Shown piece by piece: positions 2,997 through 43,585 of a stretch of DNA of 47,804 nt; positions within the stretch are counted from its first letter, which is position 1, and each line of letters starts with the position of its first letter. Made by a program: the position numbers and the translations under genes. The DNA comes from a virus. Its lineage: Duplodnaviria; Heunggongvirae; Uroviricota; Caudoviricetes. The notes beneath the pieces are model-generated. The model was not told the DNA's origin. It saw only the letters and a program-made list of their open reading frames with translations, and did no database searches. The stretch lies in IMG/VR virus record IMGVR_UViG_2541047728_000005; one strand, 5' to 3'.

Positions 2997-3998
2997 TTAA
3001 TACCCATTAATTACTCTTCGGACATCAATCGAGGTGGTATAACCACTAGTCCCAATTGAATGCACAGCTTTCGATATAAGATATTTTCCAGAAAATGAAC
3101 CGAATCCCTCCAGATTTATAGTTACACCAGCTACCAATCTGGTGTCTCCAACCAATACTAAAGATCCGGTATTTTGATATCTATTTTTAAGCCGCAAAGC
3201 AGCCTTTGCCTTACGTTTTGCTTCATCTAAATTAGCTACCAGTTTTCTTATCTTAAGATTCGACCCTTCTTCTACGGATGGATCTACCCAAGTATACGAA
3301 AGCGACTTTCTTTTTTTAGGTACGCGATATTTGCACGTGCAACTTTTATACAAATCTGTAGATTGTGTGCTAAAGCTATATCTGATTATCTCATCAATAC
3401 CTAACGTAAGCGTAGCGATAGGATCTTTTTGCTCAAACATCTCTTGAGCAAATATTATTAATTGGCTATCAGTGACCTTTAACGACAACCCTTCATCCTG
3501 GCAAAGTCGATGGAGAAATTTTAAATCGCTTTCCTCCATTTGATCTTCACGCGCATAATATGGATTACTATCACCATCAATAAGAAACAACAGTTCAAGG
3601 TTAGCTAATTTAGCTATAGAAGTTGCTATATCTTTAAGAGTTGTTTTTTCCCATGCATTACTTTTTAAATCACGTCTAATGCCTGATGAAACAGGAACAG
3701 AAACAGCAGTTACCTCAACCACAGAAGGTGGTCCAGAGCAAGTTATGCCATCTACCTGGAATTTCCCGCACTCAAGGACGATTTGATTTATAGGCTTAAA
3801 GCTCAAATCAATAAAATCACCCTTTTTAGGTGTCCAGTCTCCAGACCATTTCCCATCATCATTTTTTAATATAATAGAAATATCATCGACCTGACCATCT
3901 TCATTATCTGTATAAGACATTGACAAAACATCAGGTGACATATGAGCGGTAATATTTACATTCTGATATATAACATCAAAAAGCGTTTTACGTAACAC
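2997..3998 (-). CDS. Tail protein D-like (P2 gpD / Mu gpP late control D family)
   Basis: 333-aa ORF downstream of tape measure and X-like gene, as in Mu/P2 tail operons. Confidence 0.55.
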   Translation of the reverse strand: MLRKTLFDVIYQNVNITAHMSPDVLSMSYTDNEDGQVDDISIILKNDDGKWSGDWTPKKGDFIDLSFKPINQIVLECGKFQVDGITCSGPPSVVEVTAVSVPVSSGIRRDLKSNAWEKTTLKDIATSIAKLANLELLFLIDGDSNPYYAREDQMEESDLKFLHRLCQDEGLSLKVTDSQLIIFAQEMFEQKDPIATLTLGIDEIIRYSFSTQSTDLYKSCTCKYRVPKKRKSLSYTWVDPSVEEGSNLKIRKLVANLDEAKRKAKAALRLKNRYQNTGSLVLVGDTRLVAGVTINLEGFGSFSGKYLISKAVHSIGTSGYTTSIDVRRVINGY

Positions 3999-24452: not shown

Positions 24453-24528
24453 TGGTGGCCCCTACCGGATTTGAACCGATGACCGTGCGATTATGAGTCG
24501 CCTGCTCTAACCACTGAGCTAAGGGGCC
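24453..24528 (-). tRNA. tRNA with CAT anticodon, tRNA-Ile2 (lysidine)-like; could alternatively be Met
   Basis: Minus-strand GGCCCCTTAGCTCAGTGGTTAGAGCAGGCGACTCATAATCGC...GGTTCAAATCCGGTAGGGGCCACCA; cloverleaf with 7-bp acceptor stem, encoded CCA; 5' 42 nt match my recollection of E. coli ileX. Confidence 0.85.
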
Positions 24529-26304: not shown

Positions 26305-26317
26305 TGAAATCCTCGTT

Positions 26318-26351
26318 AAAAAAAAAGCCCCGCCGAAAAAGGCAGGGCTTC
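26318..26351 (-). terminator. Strong rho-independent terminator immediately upstream of holin RBS (tR'-like)
   Basis: Minus strand: GCCCTGCC-tttttc-GGCGGGGC followed by nine T. Confidence 0.7.
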
Positions 26352-26690
26352 ATAAAGCAACAAATTACGCGGTAATCGCTTAACGCAGTTTTACTACGTT
26401 AAATGAAACACTACACCCAGTTACCATCTAAAACAAGGTTTTTCCATAAAAAAACCTTCATATCGTGGTTAATCGATCAATAAAAAAACAATGTTCAACT
26501 TTTTACCAACCGAACATCCCGACCAGGACTTCCATAATATTCGCCGATATGCCACTGCTTAAGTTGAGTAATCTTCTCCAACTTAGCTCCCATAGAGTCC
26601 AGTTTCTGCCATGTTTTCGGTTGTATGTGCTTCATTACCCGCTCTGAATATCTGAATACTGCTCGTAATCGCATGGATTCTCACTACAGC

Positions 26691-31916: not shown

Positions 31917-32428
31917 TGATGGCCCCCGTCATTTCTGGTGCTTTTCACCGTGCGGCTTCTTAAAAACCTGCCATCACGAACAACAGACACTTCTCGTTTA
32001 CCCAACCTCATTTCACGGCGGTAACATTCAGAAAATGCCTCGTCCGGCATCATATAAATGCGACGCTTCGCCTCCGTATCCAGAAGGGAACGGCTTGGGG
32101 TTACATATAAGAACGACTCATCAATAGGGACAAAACCACGAGCAAGAATTGCTGGCAGAATACCAGGAAGAACGCAGAAAACAGCTCCACGATGCAGCAA
32201 CATCTGGTACTCCATGACCTCCGTAATCCCCGTAACGACTGTTACGGTGTCACGTCTGTTACGGCTGGCAACCAGTCGCTGCACACCTCCAATTTTCTGC
32301 TCTACAGATAGACGTTTGCTATCGTTATCAATATGATCGATAACAAATCCTTTAATCGTTTGATCAAGGTAGTGCACCACCTGCGATTGAATCTGGTGAT
32401 TATCACCAAAGAAGGCCAGAATCATCAT
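31913..32428 (-). CDS. Hypothetical protein
   Basis: 171-aa ORF translationally coupled to neighbours. Confidence 0.4.
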   Translation of the reverse strand: MMILAFFGDNHQIQSQVVHYLDQTIKGFVIDHIDNDSKRLSVEQKIGGVQRLVASRNRRDTVTVVTGITEVMEYQMLLHRGAVFCVLPGILPAILARGFVPIDESFLYVTPSRSLLDTEAKRRIYMMPDEAFSECYRREMRLGKREVSVVRDGRFLRSRTVKSTRNDGGHQ

Positions 32429-32919
32429 TCCTCAAGCCTCCCAAGTGCTGAACGCCGGGCGTTGCTAATCTCCTTATGAATCAGCTCGATATCGCTGGAA
32501 TCTTTATTCTTAAGCTCCAGCACGGTAATCGCATCACGAACCTCTGAAACGGTTACATGTGAGTGTTTCCAGCGAGCAATGAATCGCGGACCGCGTAGAT
32601 TGCAACGCTCCGCAGGCATCCCCAGCTCAGAGAAAACCGCTTTCAGCCTTGATAAGCAGTTAACAGGGAGATTCCCTTTGATCTTGTTCTGCCGAACCGA
32701 TGTGCCATCGCTACGCTGGCGCTGACGTTCGGCAAAATCTGCCGCCCATTGCTGGACGTTAATCCGGCCTTCCGAATACGCCACCAGCAGCGTCAGGTTA
32801 TCCGCACGAGGGAATCTCTCGAAGCGATACCAGGCACCAATCAGTGATGACGTAAAGCCAAACTTTCTGGCAACACCAATTTGGCCTCCATTTTCGTCAA
32901 CCCACTCCTGAAAGGTCAT
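32425..32919 (-). CDS. Putative Cro/CII-like early regulator (HTH), divergent from repressor gene
   Basis: 164-aa ORF with GGAG RBS; first gene of minus-strand operon leaving the operator region. Confidence 0.4.
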   Translation of the reverse strand: MTFQEWVDENGGQIGVARKFGFTSSLIGAWYRFERFPRADNLTLLVAYSEGRINVQQWAADFAERQRQRSDGTSVRQNKIKGNLPVNCLSRLKAVFSELGMPAERCNLRGPRFIARWKHSHVTVSEVRDAITVLELKNKDSSDIELIHKEISNARRSALGRLEE

Positions 32920-32938: not shown

Positions 32939-33056
32939 ACCACGATATGTGGTATTAAAACCACATATCGTGAGTTTTTCAATGGGCGAAACAAAAAATA
33001 ACCTTCTATTTGTGGTCCACCTCTCGTCTTACCATGTGAAAACCACTAAATGTGGT
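32939..33056. promoter_or_regulatory. Divergent operator/promoter region with three ACCAC-N5-GTGGT operators (32939..32953, 32960..32974, 33042..33056)
   Basis: accacgatatgtggt, accacatatcgtgag, accactaaatgtggt between divergent repressor and cro-like genes; minus-strand TTGAAA-N17-TTTAAT overlaps O2. Confidence 0.65.
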
Positions 33057-33093
33057 AATGTATAAATAACCCACCATTCACGATTGATGAGAC

Positions 33094-33750
33094 ATGAAAA
33101 GCAACGACGAGAACATCAAGAAAGAAATAGGTCTGCGCATTCAGACTCTACGGAAACAATCCGGCATGACTGCCGGAGATCTCCAGCAAGTCACTGGAAT
33201 AGGCTTAAGCACCTTGCAGAACTATGAGGCCGGATTAAGACAACCATCTATACCTGCCATCAAGAAAATCGCGCACGCCCTGAAAGCATCAGCGCCTTAT
33301 ATCGCGTGCTTAACAGATAACCCGTTCCCACCCCAGAATACTAACGCTCCTGTTATTCCTGGGCTTGTAGCTATAAAAAATGACATAGCATCGCACGCCG
33401 GAGAAAAGCCAGTGCTGGCGATAGAACAGGAGATTCTACGAAGCAAGAACATCAACCCATCGTCTCTGTCAGTTCTCCAGAGCAACGATGAGTTAATGTC
33501 ACCAACAATATCCCCAGGCTCCCAAGTCCTGATTAATACAGACGATACAGAGATTCATGAGGGGATCTATGCCCTTGAAGACAGAAATGGCCTGGTTGTT
33601 TTGAGGCACTGTAGAGTCATACCGGGTGACAATGCTGTTATGCTGTCAACCGAAAGGGATGCTGAAATGAACACTAAGCATCTGAATAACGAGGAATTTA
33701 AGCGTTATAAAGTTCTTGGCCGCGTAGTTAGTGTTGTCAACTGGTTATGA
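33094..33750 (+). CDS. cI/LexA-like repressor (HTH_XRE plus S24-like C-terminal domain)
   Basis: 218 aa; N-terminal HTH (TAGDLQQVTGIGLSTLQNYEAG); C-terminal MSPTISPGSQVLINTDD...KVLGRVVSVVNWL resembles lambda cI/LexA C-domain. Confidence 0.8.
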   Translation: MKSNDENIKKEIGLRIQTLRKQSGMTAGDLQQVTGIGLSTLQNYEAGLRQPSIPAIKKIAHALKASAPYIACLTDNPFPPQNTNAPVIPGLVAIKNDIASHAGEKPVLAIEQEILRSKNINPSSLSVLQSNDELMSPTISPGSQVLINTDDTEIHEGIYALEDRNGLVVLRHCRVIPGDNAVMLSTERDAEMNTKHLNNEEFKRYKVLGRVVSVVNWL

Positions 33751-33792
33751 TACACAGCACGGCGAAAGCCGTGCATTTCTACGCTCAAAAAA

Positions 33793-33807
33793 ACCACATT
33801 TTGTGGT
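33793..33807. promoter_or_regulatory. Fourth operator ACCAC-ATTTT-GTGGT downstream of repressor gene
   Basis: accacattttgtggt, perfect palindrome adjacent to TTGACA. Confidence 0.55.
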
Positions 33808-33842
33808 TTTGACAACATGTAAAAGTATAAAAGAGGCTACGC

Positions 33843-34217
33843 ATGGAATTACATACAGCCAATAAAAACGAAACTCTGATCACTGCTGGAATCGAAATCC
33901 AAGCGTTGAACATAGCGATTGAGTGTATGTTATGCCAAATCATTGATAATGAGAAAGATATCGACTGGATAGAATCTATCCTTCATCTGGCATCAGAACA
34001 AAAAGTCTGCCTCAAAACGGCCTTACAATACGATGTGCCAGCGATATCGAAGCTGTGCCAGCCATTGATGGCATATAACAGGGCTATTATTTCTGTATGC
34101 CTCATGATTCTTGATGAAAACACCCCTCTTAGCGACCGCTCAGAAGCTGCTCTCACCCTCTCACGTAAACAGCGACAGCTAGCAAATCAACTGATATCAA
34201 CGATAGCTGACCTCTGA
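33843..34217 (+). CDS. Hypothetical protein downstream of repressor
   Basis: 124-aa ORF. Confidence 0.4.
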   Translation: MELHTANKNETLITAGIEIQALNIAIECMLCQIIDNEKDIDWIESILHLASEQKVCLKTALQYDVPAISKLCQPLMAYNRAIISVCLMILDENTPLSDRSEAALTLSRKQRQLANQLISTIADL

Positions 34218-34221
34218 CTGA

Positions 34222-34241
34222 AAGCGGGCTAACGCCCGCTT
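34222..34241 (+). terminator. Hairpin after 33843..34217, possible terminator
   Basis: aagcgggc-taac-gcccgctt. Confidence 0.4.
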
Positions 34242-34245
34242 ACAT

Positions 34246-34346
34246 GATTATAGATTTATATAATTATATAAAACGCTTTTCATCCGCCAAAAAGTTGGTT
34301 ATGCTTACCTCGTTCTATAAATATAGATTTATAGAATTATATAACC
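34246..34346. repeat. Two TATA-rich palindromic repeat arrays upstream of parA (candidate centromere/operator)
   Basis: gattatagatttatataattatataaaacgc and ctataaatatagatttatagaattatataacc; related arrays at seven other loci. Confidence 0.55.
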
Positions 34347-34367
34347 AAACACATGGAGTCTCGACAA

Positions 34368-35534: not shown

Positions 35535-35557
35535 TAAAAAAGGCCCCCGAAGGGGCC
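35535..35557 (-). terminator. Rho-independent terminator oriented for minus-strand transcripts
   Basis: Minus strand GGCCCC-ttc-GGGGGCC followed by TTTTTTT; 7 nt after stop of small ORF 35564..35686. Confidence 0.65.
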
Positions 35558-35563
35558 TAATCG

Positions 35564-35686
35564 CTACTTGCTGCTAATGTTTATCGTCACATTCAGAGCG
35601 TTATCAGTAATCTTCCAACCCTCCCCATGTGGCGTAAACAAAGCCCCAGTAACAACGATAAAAATACACATACAGTATTTTTTCAT
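35564..35686 (-). CDS. Small hydrophobic peptide (40 aa), candidate type I toxin-like or small membrane protein
   Basis: MKKYCMCIFIVVTGALFTPHGEGWKITDNALNVTINISSK; AAGGG RBS 7 nt upstream; strong terminator immediately downstream. Confidence 0.45.
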   Translation of the reverse strand: MKKYCMCIFIVVTGALFTPHGEGWKITDNALNVTINISSK

Positions 35687-35917
35687 TGTATGGCCCTTAC
35701 AGGCCGTTTCACGGCATCCCCACCGACGAAAACAACGCGAGAGCAAGCACGGCTGCTTGTGCTTGCATGTACGGCAACGGAGAATCCTCCCCTAAAGTCG
35801 GTGCCCGGGTGCGAATCGGCGGGAAGGTCCACAGGTATTTTACGATTATTTTAAGATTAGTAATAGGAAAGAAATTAAACGAAAAAACTCGTTTATTTTC
35901 ACAAAATCAGTAACCTA

Positions 35918-36111: not shown

Positions 36112-36179
36112 TTTCTGCCTACCAATAAACCCACGCTATGTGGTTGTCTCTGTTAAAATCCCGCCGTATTGACATGAAT

Positions 36180-36279
36180 GCGCCATTGGTGGACACTTTC
36201 CGAGCCGTAGCAAAATCTACGGTCGGGATTGGAACCCCGATAATCATCATGGCGCATACCGCGTTAGCGGTTTTTTTAT
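36180..36279 (+). ncRNA. Structured RNA segment ending at intrinsic terminator in antirepressor operon leader
   Basis: Hairpins CCGTAG-caaaat-CTACGG, CGGG-attggaa-CCCG, terminator ACCGC-gtta-GCGGT plus TTTTTTT at 36259..36279. Confidence 0.35.
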
Positions 36280-36442
36280 GCGTAAAGCACTGCTACACCC
36301 AAATTATGGTGGGGCGTGCGGGGGAGTCGTAAGACTCGCCGGATTCCATGGTGACCGGTAGTTCCAACCCTGTACGTCTCACCACCCAATGATTGGAACC
36401 AGACGGTGGTGAGTATCCTTAACCTTTAAGGGAACTATCACC

Positions 36443-36634
36443 ATGACAAACTTACCCCATGACTATTACGTCAACCTCGTAAAGATCCTTCTCAAGAAAG
36501 CCTCATACGCCGATAAATTCCGCCTAGCTGAAATCATCGAGCGCGAAGCTATGCGCATCGCCAGCAACGATAACGCTGTTTCTGACGCAAAAATCTCCCT
36601 CGTAACCAAAGTAGTTATGGGAGGTGCAAAATGA
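36443..36634 (+). CDS. Small protein preceding antirepressor (icd-like position)
   Basis: 63-aa ORF overlapping start of antirepressor gene (ATGA); AAGGGA RBS. Confidence 0.45.
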   Translation: MTNLPHDYYVNLVKILLKKASYADKFRLAEIIEREAMRIASNDNAVSDAKISLVTKVVMGGAK

Positions 36635-37773
36635 AAACGCTTCCGACCGTTAACACCCTACAGCCTATCTTGCATAACCAGATCCCCGTTATTACAACTG
36701 AACTTCTGGCGCAGTTATACGGAACAAAAATCAAAAACATTTCTGATAACTTTCTGAACAACACGACGCGATTCATAGCCGGAAAGCATTACTTTAAAAT
36801 TGAAAAAAACGAATTACGCGAGTTCAAGAACAGACCTGAAACAATCGGGTTAGTTGGTAAAAATGCCCGCTCCCTCATTCTCTGGACAGAACGCGGGGCT
36901 GCACGTCACGCCAAAATGCTCGAAACCGATCAGGCGTGGGATGTATTCGAACGGCTGGAAGACTGCTATTTCAGCCAGAACGCGCAAACGGCCGCGACCG
37001 TAACCGTCTCGCCAAACAATGCTCGTGAGGTTGTCGATACGCTCAACGCCAAACCGATGTTTTACATTAAAGTGTGCAACAACGAGCCACTCACAACCTC
37101 AGCCGATGTTGCCCAAGCATTCAGCACCACAAACAATTCCATCGTTATGGCCATCGATGCGCTACGCATTCCTCGCACGGCTGCGGCGCGTCACTTCTTT
37201 AAAGAGCAACGACCGCTGGAAGGAAGCGACCGCGAAATAACAATCTATCGCATGACAAAAGACGGATTTACCTTGCTCATGGAGAGCATCGACGGTCCAA
37301 GCGTGAAAGATATCAAGCTGGCCTACATTGAAGCCTTTAACGCTATCAGCAGCGTGTTAAAAACACAGTACGAGCGTGATCTGGCTAAACGACTGTACCA
37401 GGAAAAAACGATTATCCGCGCGGCAACAGAGCATAATCGGCTATTAACGGAACCGAACTACAGGAAGGAACTAATCAAGGCGTTTGACAAGGCAACAGGG
37501 AAAACCAAAGCGGCGCTAAATCTGCCAGCAATGACTCAGGAAAATGTGATATCAGCCTTACTTCTTGATCTGCTCAGAAACGCCAGAGCACTTATCAGCT
37601 TTGACGAAAACCTGAATCCTCAGCTCAAGCTACTACCACCGACAGGCAAAGTAGTCGACCAAGCTGATCACAACAGCATACTCAGCGTACTGGATGCAAA
37701 CCTGCCAGCCAAGACACTACAGGATCTGATAAAAACATGTGCTGATAAGCTGGCACAGAAAAGCAGACCATAA
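36631..37773 (+). CDS. Antirepressor-like protein (ORF6N/KilA-N-type N-terminal domain)
   Basis: 380 aa; N-terminal ITTELLAQLYGTKIKNISDNFLNNTTRFIAGKHYFKIEKNELREFK...LWTERGAARHAKMLETDQAWDVFERLEDCYF matches ORF6N-type antirepressor pattern. Confidence 0.65.
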   Translation: MKTLPTVNTLQPILHNQIPVITTELLAQLYGTKIKNISDNFLNNTTRFIAGKHYFKIEKNELREFKNRPETIGLVGKNARSLILWTERGAARHAKMLETDQAWDVFERLEDCYFSQNAQTAATVTVSPNNAREVVDTLNAKPMFYIKVCNNEPLTTSADVAQAFSTTNNSIVMAIDALRIPRTAAARHFFKEQRPLEGSDREITIYRMTKDGFTLLMESIDGPSVKDIKLAYIEAFNAISSVLKTQYERDLAKRLYQEKTIIRAATEHNRLLTEPNYRKELIKAFDKATGKTKAALNLPAMTQENVISALLLDLLRNARALISFDENLNPQLKLLPPTGKVVDQADHNSILSVLDANLPAKTLQDLIKTCADKLAQKSRP

Positions 37774-42138: not shown

Positions 42139-43119
42139 TTAATGTTGGAGTGATTTCCAGGTCTTTCTTAACCTGTTATAACGCTGCTCAACGAGGGATC
42201 GTAAATATGCAAGGTCAGCACCAGGATACATGCCATCAGCAAATTCCTGACTAACCTCTCTGGTGATTTGATGACGAAGTTCGGCCTCTCCCTTTTCCCG
42301 AACAAGACGCGCAGCTCTCTCCGCTGCTTTCTGTTTTGCCTTTATCTCTCTGGCCGTCTTCCTCTGACGCCATACATTCTCCATCTGCTCCTGAATAACA
42401 ATACGCTTATAATCAGCCTCCGTTATCGCTTTTTTAAGCCGTTCGCTATTCTTCGCATTGAAGTAATTAAGTTTCTGGCTAACCGCACGTCTCCATGCTT
42501 GTTCAGTAATACCAACGGTTTCCAGCAGTTGATCACGAATCTCTATTTTCGCTGGCCAATACTGTTTATTCACCCGATCCCAGCGACGTTCATAATCAAT
42601 AAAACCTAACGCTTTCAGTTGCGACAACGCCCTTGTACAGCGCGTTATAGACTTGTTCCCAGCTTCGGATACGGTAGACAGGCCGCAAAAATCAGCCAAC
42701 GCCTCAGCACTAGCCAGAACCCGCTTAGAAATGATGTTTACATGGTGCAAAATCGCAGCGATCACAGCATTAATCGCCCGACGACGATGCTCGTTTATCC
42801 GGCGCTTCCGCTCTGACGGTTGATTAACGTAGAACGCAACCTCACACGTAAGATCACGCCCATTAATGCGCTGTAAAGCATCAGATAACACCAGCGGCAG
42901 CTTGTGCGTATGGTGCTTTGGAGGCTGGAACTCCGGCGACAAATTACAAACGTAAGCTGAACGTAGAGACGGCATTGGTCTATCCATATGTTCGCTCTTG
43001 CGTCCACGGAAAACCAACGTATAATGGGAGTTGTCGAGGCGCCCATGGATTGTTGTTGTTGGTTTTCCGTGGATGTCGCAAGAAGCCCGCAGATTTATCT
43101 GCGGGCTTTTTGTTTCCAT
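42139..43119 (-). CDS. repA: Replication initiator RepA (IncFII RepA1 family); true start possibly internal Met at 42987
   Basis: Segment RRRAINAVIAAILHHVNIISKRVLASAEALADFCGLSTVSEAGNKSITRCTRALSQLKALGFIDYERRWD closely parallels my recollection of R100/R1 RepA1. Confidence 0.8.
   Translation of the reverse strand: METKSPQINLRASCDIHGKPTTTIHGRLDNSHYTLVFRGRKSEHMDRPMPSLRSAYVCNLSPEFQPPKHHTHKLPLVLSDALQRINGRDLTCEVAFYVNQPSERKRRINEHRRRAINAVIAAILHHVNIISKRVLASAEALADFCGLSTVSEAGNKSITRCTRALSQLKALGFIDYERRWDRVNKQYWPAKIEIRDQLLETVGITEQAWRRAVSQKLNYFNAKNSERLKKAITEADYKRIVIQEQMENVWRQRKTAREIKAKQKAAERAARLVREKGEAELRHQITREVSQEFADGMYPGADLAYLRSLVEQRYNRLRKTWKSLQH
43031..43112 (+). ncRNA. CopA-like antisense RNA candidate in repA leader
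   Basis: Plus-strand TTGCGT-N16-TATAAT (42998..43025) followed ~60 nt later by 11-bp GC hairpin agcccgcagat...atctgcgggct and TTTTTGTTT (43084..43115), antisense to repA 5' region. Confidence 0.5.
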
Positions 43120-43585
43120 ATCTGGTCACTTTCCAACCAGACACCCACAATCATAACCACGTTACGTGGTTTTAAGAGAACTCTACCACAACACTTTCGG
43201 TCATGCACGAAGTCTCTCACTGATCGAACGATAATCCACCAGTAAAAGGATCTAAATTGGATCTCGTTTTGCGAGCATCATACTACTGGCCTAACTCCAG
43301 TCAATGATTCCCAGCCAGAAACCTGCGGTAAACTCATCGTTCAGCAATATGCTGTCCGGCTTCAAAGATAAGGTGACATCATCCCTTAACAGCGCGGCCA
43401 GTTCAGTTAAAGGGCTGTTCTGATTTAATGCTGGCCACTCATACCTGGTAATAAGTGGTCAGTCTTAACACTCACTATTTGATTGCACCCGTGTTGACGA
43501 TTTGTTACTGGATATCAGACACGCTGGATAGCCAGTAGAAACATACCATTAAAATTATTACAATAATTGGTCACATGATTATCTT

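Follow-up and report, generated by a model that had tools for sequence, protein, structure and literature searches.

A conserved 15-bp palindrome in a ~48-kb IncFII-type phage-plasmid is a probable operator of its CI-type repressor

The palindrome ACCAC-N5-GTGGT recurs around a phage repressor gene in IMG/VR virus record IMGVR_UViG_2541047728_000005, which raises the question of which protein reads it and which promoters it would control. The window, by which we mean the whole 47,804-bp stretch of DNA that was analysed, is a circular phage-plasmid of ~48 kb that carries myovirus genes, an IncFII-family RepA, and ParA. PLSDB contains 58 complete plasmids of 47-50 kb that match it at 99-100% identity (57 are from Escherichia and one is from Klebsiella aerogenes, and every one is typed as non-mobilizable), and three Yersinia pestis phages of ~49 kb (vB_YpM_39, 41 and 44) match it at 99%. 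It follows that the phage-plasmid is able to form infectious particles as well. An earlier note on this DNA had named four palindromic sites, and all four sequences, here called O1 to O4, are present at the positions it gave (Table 1). O1, O2 and O3 lie inside the 174-bp gap between two divergent genes, one encoding a 164-aa protein (ATG at 32919, minus strand) and the other the 218-aa repressor (ATG at 33094, plus strand), and O4 lies 43 bp past the stop codon of the repressor gene (33750), beyond a terminator hairpin (33757-33774). From comparisons of sequence we propose, with a probability of roughly 0.8, that these palindromes serve as operators to which the 218-aa CI-type repressor binds as a dimer. 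The sites themselves are observed directly, whereas we infer that the 218-aa protein binds them, where the promoters lie, and in which direction each site would regulate.

The genome-wide pattern search that the earlier note had proposed as a check finds ACCAC-N5-GTGGT far above chance density. The window holds five exact copies, compared to a mean of 0.00 in 100 dinucleotide-preserving shuffles, none of which (0/100) reached five, and to a simple expectation of ~0.05. Two of these exact copies extend the original list: an intergenic copy upstream of repA (43156-43170), which we call O-rep, and a copy inside a tail gene (3718-3732). When one mismatch is allowed, four copies are found and ~1.4 are expected, which is near chance, and the copy at 36130 alone has other support. 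When up to two mismatches are allowed, the window contains 25 matches and 12.7 are expected; therefore, degenerate copies are mostly noise and each needs separate support. A position weight matrix (PWM) was trained on the relatives' sites alone, with 4-bp flanks, and then run on the window. Its six top matches, all at regulatory junctions outside coding sequence, exceed the scores of every shuffle (Table 1): the next-best match in the window reaches 12.4 bits, and the maximum over 50 shuffles is 14.0 bits. The extended consensus is AAAACCAC-N5-GTGGTTTT. The copy at 3718 was rejected as an operator, as it lies in a tail gene, lacks the A/T flanks, scores 1.3 bits, and reads ACAAC in a Yersinia phage; given its score and its mutation in that phage, we treat it as a chance occurrence.

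Homologues of the repressor at 60-66% identity were found in a large protein database, in Citrobacter, Klebsiella aerogenes, Yokenella and Salmonella, on contigs of 46-49 kb. The loci of these homologues and one complete Salmonella plasmid of the same family make up our comparative set, in which individual loci carry L numbers. The motif recurs at the same places in every relative locus examined, that is, at O1, O2, O3 and O4 and, where the locus extends that far, at the repA site. This positional conservation spans at least nine diverged lineages and an independent 44.5-kb genome. In the relatives, O1 lies ~20 bp upstream of the divergent gene and its left arm is sometimes CCCAC, and the centre of O2 lies 21 bp from that of O1, with a right arm of GTGGG (GTGAG in the window). 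O3 lies 82-83 bp beyond O2 and is perfect in every lineage (arm identity 1.00), O4 follows the repressor-gene terminator with perfect arms in every lineage, and the repA site is perfect and ~180 bp upstream of the 277-aa repA in L002-L006, L010 and L015. Across the aligned intergenic region, mean pairwise identity is 0.94 for the arms, 0.60 for the 5-bp spacers, and 0.66 for all other columns. The spacer of O4 is polymorphic in near-identical E. coli-type IMG/VR contigs (ATTTT, GATTT, GCTTT), and its arms are fixed. Conservation at fixed positions in relatives thus bears out the claim of a clear operator consensus, and the palindromes are sites with sequence specificity that are conserved in evolution and linked to the divergent repressor/early-gene region.

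These data also bear on whether the sites are simply chance palindromes in AT-rich intergenic DNA. The copy at 3718 does look like chance, and an unrelated IMG/VR phage has matches in its coding regions. That phage, L021, is one of 11 contigs recovered by an IMG/VR scan with the O1-linker-O2 pattern; the other 10 belong to the same family as the window, and L021 was set aside as a coding-region false positive. For the five intergenic sites, however, the shuffles, the PWM, the identity of the arms, and the positional conservation refute chance, which leaves this explanation with a practically negligible probability.

A further alternative is that the palindromes act as nucleic-acid structures, such that an O1/O2 hairpin followed by U residues terminates or attenuates leftward transcription before the 164-aa gene. 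The O1-O2 segment does fold into a 13-14-bp stem (-25.7 kcal/mol, z = -7.05) followed by UUUUAA and is flagged as terminator-like on both strands, the same segment folds in relatives (z from -2.1 to -5.6), and the outer arms are mutually complementary in some lineages (CCCAC...GTGGG). However, any two adjacent palindromes give such a hairpin, mirrored spacers are a feature of the window's clade only, and these arms are also present in isolated sites (O3, O4, O-rep) that would form stems of 5 bp at most. It is the sequence of the arms itself that is conserved, beyond pairing, and with a conserved -10 element in the loop the predicted transcript would start inside the structure. In addition, the arm deviations (CCCAC, GTGGG, GTGAG) have no compensating change within the same site, and therefore base-specific reading by a protein is favoured over a hairpin. 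We judge a structural role to be very unlikely. As an observation in its own right, O2 in the window's clade mirrors O1 including its central 5 bp (GATAT / ATATC; 32940-32973), giving a 13-14-bp inverted repeat with a 6-nt loop that holds the predicted -10; the spacers are unmirrored in relatives.

The predicted leftward early promoter is the best-scoring promoter-like site on the minus strand, and it is found at the same position, with conserved columns, in nine of nine lineages. O2 fills exactly the 17-bp spacer of this predicted promoter, and O1 begins directly after its -10 hexamer, spans the predicted transcription start near 32947, and precedes the ATG of the 164-aa gene by 20 bp; the centres of O1 and O2 are 21 bp apart. 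On the other strand, the predicted repressor-gene promoter, with a start expected near 33068, scores just below the listing cut-off in the window, but in six relatives TGnTAAnGT stands at the conserved position together with a -35-like ATGAAA or GTGAAA. O3 overlaps both the spacer and the extended -10 of this predicted promoter, and therefore repressor bound at O3 would repress its own gene.

The protein encoded by the repressor gene matches Pfam HTH_3 (4.5e-11) and PHROG phrog_4, a repressor family (9.6e-27), and its match to Peptidase_S24 (0.0018) falls below the cut-off (18.4 vs 23.3 bits). In contrast to the diverged C-terminal halves, residues 12-49, which form the helix-turn-helix (HTH), are invariant in all 12 sequences compared, and all of these proteins are therefore expected to recognise the same DNA. 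In an alignment with LexA and lambda CI, a catalytic Ser/Lys dyad is not conserved in the 12 homologues: the Ser position is Glu or Leu, the protein has DELM[S/A]PT where LexA has GMSM, and the Lys region reads LRHCRV with no conserved Lys. On this alignment, the repressor is probably not RecA-cleavable.

The motif might instead be read mainly by another protein, either the 164-aa product acting as a Cro-type regulator or a small HTH protein encoded near 38.2-38.5 kb. Cro shares operators in lambda-type switches, the 164-aa protein is as syntenic as the repressor and is 71-76% conserved among relatives, and the motif CCTTC-N5-GTGGT, described below, reveals at least one further specificity in the region. 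Furthermore, the invariance of the HTH leaves no covariation between protein and DNA that would single out the 218-aa protein. On the other hand, the 164-aa protein lacks a detectable DNA-binding domain. Searches with Pfam (E <= 10), NCBIfam, and PDB profiles found no Cro or HTH signature in it, and its AlphaFold model (pLDDT 56) is too poor for a fold search. The label "cro-like" that had been attached to this gene thus holds by position only, with no family, domain or profile match behind it. Sites at repA and after the repressor gene also suit a regulator of the maintenance state, and the Cro proteins of phiKO2 and PY54 bind one operator only (PMC4997575). We consider it unlikely that another protein is the main reader; sharing of operators by both proteins would in any case be compatible with the 218-aa repressor binding them.

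O4 is a distal operator candidate, 750 bp from O3, between the repressor-gene terminator and the gene orf124. The hairpin and T-run that follow the repressor gene are kept in all relatives and would end the repressor transcript just before O4. The earlier note had drawn attention to a TTGACA beside O4 (33809-33814). As a -35 element this hexamer was rejected: relatives have TTTTAG, TTTAAC or TTTAGC in its place, and there is no -10 at a workable distance (15-19 bp). With no partner -10, no promoter can be assigned at that hexamer. O4 may repress orf124, block read-through, or act as a distal looping partner. The orf124 product is modelled by AlphaFold as a four-helix bundle (pLDDT 90.3), and Foldseek searches of PDB and BFVD returned designed or generic helical bundles alone, with nothing at E <= 0.001. 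Further downstream, between a hairpin that follows orf124 and parA, an AT-rich segment with short repeats (TTATAGATTTATATAATTATATAAAA) occupies 34218-34352, and it may be the promoter/operator of parA or a centromere.

The fifth site, O-rep, had been missed by the earlier note. It falls within the predicted repA promoter, where it covers about +3 to +18 relative to a predicted transcription start near 43173, and it is ~185 bp upstream of the conserved repA start at 42972. The extended -10 of this promoter, TGnTAGAGT (43188-43180), is invariant in five lineages. RepA itself matches Pfam PF02387 (1.3e-43; 149.8 bits vs a cut-off of 22.9). A long and highly conserved leader separates the predicted promoter from repA. 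On its plus strand (43000-43115), this leader contains a convergent TATAAT (43020-43025), a long hairpin and a strong terminator (43085-43112), and it folds with -41.1 kcal/mol (z = -6.26). By analogy to IncFII plasmids, this opposite-strand unit may encode an antisense RNA for copy control, at the place that CopA takes; Rfam gave no match to CopA antisense RNA in the window, even at E <= 1. No small gene that could be copB is present between O-rep and repA in the window or in relatives, and thus a phage operator stands where CopB would act. With regard to gene annotation, RefSeq gives a 326-aa repA from 43119; the open frame does reach 43119, but that ATG is absent in relatives, whose protein has 277 aa. 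The 326-aa annotation would place the leader/antisense region in coding sequence and is therefore probably an over-extension.

The positions of O4 and O-rep could alternatively point to plasmid maintenance, with O4 serving as a ParB-type centromere or operator, or O-rep as an iteron of RepA. O4 lies ~550 bp upstream of parA, and O-rep adjoins repA. Nevertheless, three of the sites are in the repressor/early-gene intergenic region, and centromeres and iterons are normally direct-repeat arrays, unlike these single inverted repeats. IncFII-type replicons such as R1 and R100 use control by antisense RNA and not iterons, which also counts against the iteron version. Lastly, orf124 and a further hairpin stand between O4 and parA, which has an AT-rich upstream region of its own. 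A maintenance function for the motif is, in our estimation, highly improbable.

Taken as operators of the 218-aa repressor, the sites suggest the following scheme. In a lysogen, repressor on O1 and O2, which are two helical turns apart and bracket the leftward -10, would shut off early lytic transcription. Repressor on O3, over the core of its own promoter, would provide negative autoregulation, and O4, behind the repressor terminator, would either repress orf124 or anchor looping at a distance. On O-rep, just downstream of the repA promoter start, the repressor would throttle RepA and hence plasmid copy number. Since the repressor lacks a LexA-type Ser/Lys dyad, induction would probably proceed through the antirepressor encoded behind the isrK and C4 RNAs, and not through self-cleavage of the repressor.

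Several points weigh against this interpretation, and the lack of protein-DNA covariation in the homologues, described above, is one of them: it provides no tie of the motif to the repressor in preference to another factor of the element. RepA relatives in PLSDB are either at least 83% identical and accompanied by the same repressor type, or less than 40% identical, with none that pairs the same RepA with another repressor. The promoters are weak consensus matches, and the leftward -10 has no A at position 2 (the -11 A). A generic promoter scan of the window reported nothing in the repressor/164-aa intergenic region; it missed the leftward promoter because of that absent A. As O3 is perfect and lies over the promoter of the repressor gene, self-repression would have to be tight, whereas OR3 of lambda is weak. 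Next to O4, no conserved promoter was found in the window or in relatives. Simple repression is hard to reconcile with the -67 position of the candidate sixth site (36130), which is also absent from the Citrobacter lineage L002.

Table 1. Features of the repressor regulon and of neighbouring loci, with positions in the window and scores of the relatives-trained PWM.
Feature	Position	Strand	Sequence or elements	PWM (bits)	Remarks
O1	32939-32953		ACCACGATATGTGGT	30.5	Exact match
O2	32960-32974		ACCACATATCGTGAG	22.9	2 mismatches
O3	33042-33056		ACCACTAAATGTGGT	23.1	Exact match
O4	33793-33807		ACCACATTTTGTGGT	31.0	Exact match; TTGACA next to it
O-rep	43156-43170		ACCACGTTACGTGGT	31.0	Exact match; on predicted repA promoter
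Candidate sixth site	36130-36144		CCCACGCTATGTGGT	18.2	1 mismatch; centre ~67 bp upstream of isrK start
Ox	33002-33016		CCTTCTATTTGTGGT		Hybrid: one repressor-type half-site (GTGGT), one different half (CCTTC)
Predicted leftward early promoter	32954-32982	minus	TTGAAA (32982-32977), 17-bp spacer, TTTAAT (32959-32954)
Predicted repressor-gene promoter	33034-33061	plus	ATGTGA (33034-33039), 16-bp spacer, extended -10 TGgTAATGT (33053-33061)
Predicted extended -10 of repA promoter	43180-43188	minus	TGgTAGAGT		9 bp upstream of O-rep
Intrinsic-terminator-like hairpin	33757-33780	plus	GCACGGC-GAAA-GCCGTGC and T-rich tail
164-aa gene	32425-32919	minus			Divergent first gene of leftward operon; phrog_7452
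Repressor gene	33094-33750	plus			218 aa; XRE/HTH_3 N-terminal domain, S24-like C-terminal domain
orf124	33843-34217	plus			PHROG phrog_7632; immediately downstream of O4
ryfA	35536-35832	minus			Rfam 141.8 bits, above gathering score
isrK	36204-36277	plus			Rfam 70.2 bits (cut-off 50)
C4 antisense RNA	36302-36389	plus			Rfam 84.3 bits (cut-off 45)
Antirepressor gene	36631-37773				ORF6N/Rha, 380 aa; directly downstream of isrK and C4; antirepressor PHROGs
repA	42139-42972	minus			277 aa; IncFII_repA replication initiator

The candidate sixth site lies between a terminator and the conserved promoter of the isrK-C4-antirepressor module (TTGACA at 36171, a 17-bp spacer, GACACT). E. coli-type contigs have it at the same position, and in L006, L009 and L010 the sequence there is ACCACAATGCGTGAT. 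The module itself is a secondary immunity module of the P1/N15 type and is conserved in relatives. No LexA box was found near the antirepressor promoter, and window-wide counts of LexA boxes equal chance.

A second motif shares a half-site with the operators. The hybrid site Ox has its centre ~42 bp from that of O2 and 40 bp from that of O3, and the block in which it lies is conserved. Each genome has exactly two copies of the pattern CCTTC-N5-GTGGT (AACCAC-N5-GAAGGTT on the minus strand), which in the window are Ox and an intergenic site upstream of the lysis genes (26455-26469). Relatives share these two locations, with copies at 2906 in L002, 1561 and 8442 in L006, 1360 and 9906 in L008, 3525 and 9907 in L009, and 2381 and 9907 in L010. 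At both locations the motif ends 18-19 nt upstream of a minus-strand -35-like hexamer, with the centre at about -61. Upstream of the holin gene (26305-26455, minus strand), we also observed a highly conserved promoter-like TTGTTT-17-TAGTGT followed by a conserved ~90-nt leader and a strong intrinsic terminator (~26320-26350). This arrangement resembles lambda PR'/tR' and suggests, by analogy, control of late genes by antitermination; no Q-like gene was identified in the window. A broader and rather doubtful reading joins the two motifs into a switch unlike those of lambda, P1 or N15, in which the repressor assumes the role of CopB in an IncFII-type replicon and AACCAC-N5-GAAGG serves a second regulator. 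The 164-aa product, by itself or paired with a repressor monomer, could fill this role, which would consist in activating the early-left promoter as well as the terminated late/lysis promoter. If this reading were true, a widespread family of Enterobacteriaceae phage-plasmids would have its copy number tied directly to lysogeny.

The gene content of the window includes contractile-tail genes, lysis genes, ParA, a toxin-antitoxin pair, and the ORF6N/Rha antirepressor. It also includes a tRNA gene at 24456-24528 on the minus strand, which the Yersinia phage record lists as tRNA-Met. Elements of this kind, 47-50 kb long, are common, as the 58 complete PLSDB plasmids illustrate; one lysogen, ECOR 39, harbours RCS82_pI. 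Relatives occur in Salmonella, Citrobacter, Klebsiella, Enterobacter and Yokenella, and Yersinia pestis served as the host on which infectious particles were isolated. In the literature that we searched, no paper deals with the genetic switch of this family, and searches by accession returned nothing on its regulation. Literature matches to vB_YpM concern other phages (HQ103, for example, is a 32-kb peduovirus), and pSLy3 was rejected as a lead because it belongs to the SSU5 group. For this family, the consensus and the five- to six-site regulon provide a map of the promoters that would be silenced, of the tie between lysogeny and copy number, and of the points that the antirepressor would target.

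How does this putative regulon compare to known systems? The earlier note had likened the sites to the OR/OL architecture of lambda. The lambda-like layout and the conserved sites stand, but the set it described is incomplete, as it lacks O-rep and possibly the site at 36130. As in lambda, a repressor gene and the first lytic gene diverge from a tripartite operator that overlaps both promoters (here predicted), with adjacent sites 21 bp apart on the same helical face. The order of repressor gene, terminator, distal operator, and a gene in the same direction likewise recalls cI-rex-tImm-OL/PL-N, and the repressor is a two-domain protein that combines an HTH with an S24-like domain. In contrast to lambda, the catalytic Ser/Lys residues are not conserved, which makes RecA-mediated self-cleavage unlikely, and there is one distal site and not three. 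The third proximal site lies 82 bp from the pair, on the repressor core promoter, and would be a strong self-repression site and not a weak one. There is no sign of positive autoregulation, and the 164-aa partner is no recognisable Cro.

The replication region resembles that of the IncFII plasmids R1 and R100 in its IncFII_repA-family RepA, in its long conserved leader with a convergent TATAAT and a hairpin-terminator unit, and in having a transcriptional repressor site on the repA promoter, where CopB acts at PrepA; control in R1 and R100 also involves the CopA antisense RNA and a leader peptide. It differs in that there is no copB and a phage operator is found instead, so that the prophage repressor appears to replace CopB. 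The antirepressor region is similarly reminiscent of the immI locus of P1 and P7 (C1-controlled Op51, c4, icd/ant): isrK and C4 lie upstream of the antirepressor gene, and a site of the primary-repressor type (36130) lies upstream of the module promoter. Here, however, that site is degenerate, is at ~-67 and not on the promoter, and is absent in one lineage, and the repressor is unrelated to C1.

Given the extra site at repA and the candidate one at the antirepressor module, the CB regulon of N15 and phiKO2 is a closer analogue than lambda OR/OL. In the immB regions of N15, phiKO2 and PY54, CB (CI) has OR1-3 between cB and cro and OL on the repA promoter (PMC4997575, PMC4488713). The CB repressor of N15 and phiKO2 uses three OR sites and the OL sites on the repA promoter to repress repA and lower copy number, and it lacks a self-cleavage site (PMC4997575). 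The element described here is likewise a phage-plasmid, with three operators between divergent repressor and early genes, a site on the repA promoter, a repressor that lacks a LexA-type cleavage/active site, and a separate antirepressor locus, the probable route of induction, guarded by a C4-type small RNA. The operator is a 15-bp ACCAC-N5-GTGGT and not the 16-bp T-A-N10-T-A of N15, there is one repA site compared to two in N15, and an extra operator stands directly behind the repressor gene. Moreover, the element is a circular myovirus whose IncFII-type RepA has an antisense-RNA-like leader, whereas N15 has a linear-plasmid RepA with a telomerase. When 50,697 phage records were searched by tblastn with the repressor, the only matches were the three Yersinia phages and others of at most 30% identity in Vibrio and other phages; none came from the N15 group. 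The relation to N15 is thus one of analogy and not of membership. To a specialist, a conventional repressor-operator regulon of this sort is not surprising: the logic is known, and of the N15 kind, and the proteins, the motif and the replicon are unrelated. If our reading is right, the N15 solution of placing a prophage repressor on a replication promoter would have arisen again with unrelated parts, which bears on how phages become plasmids.

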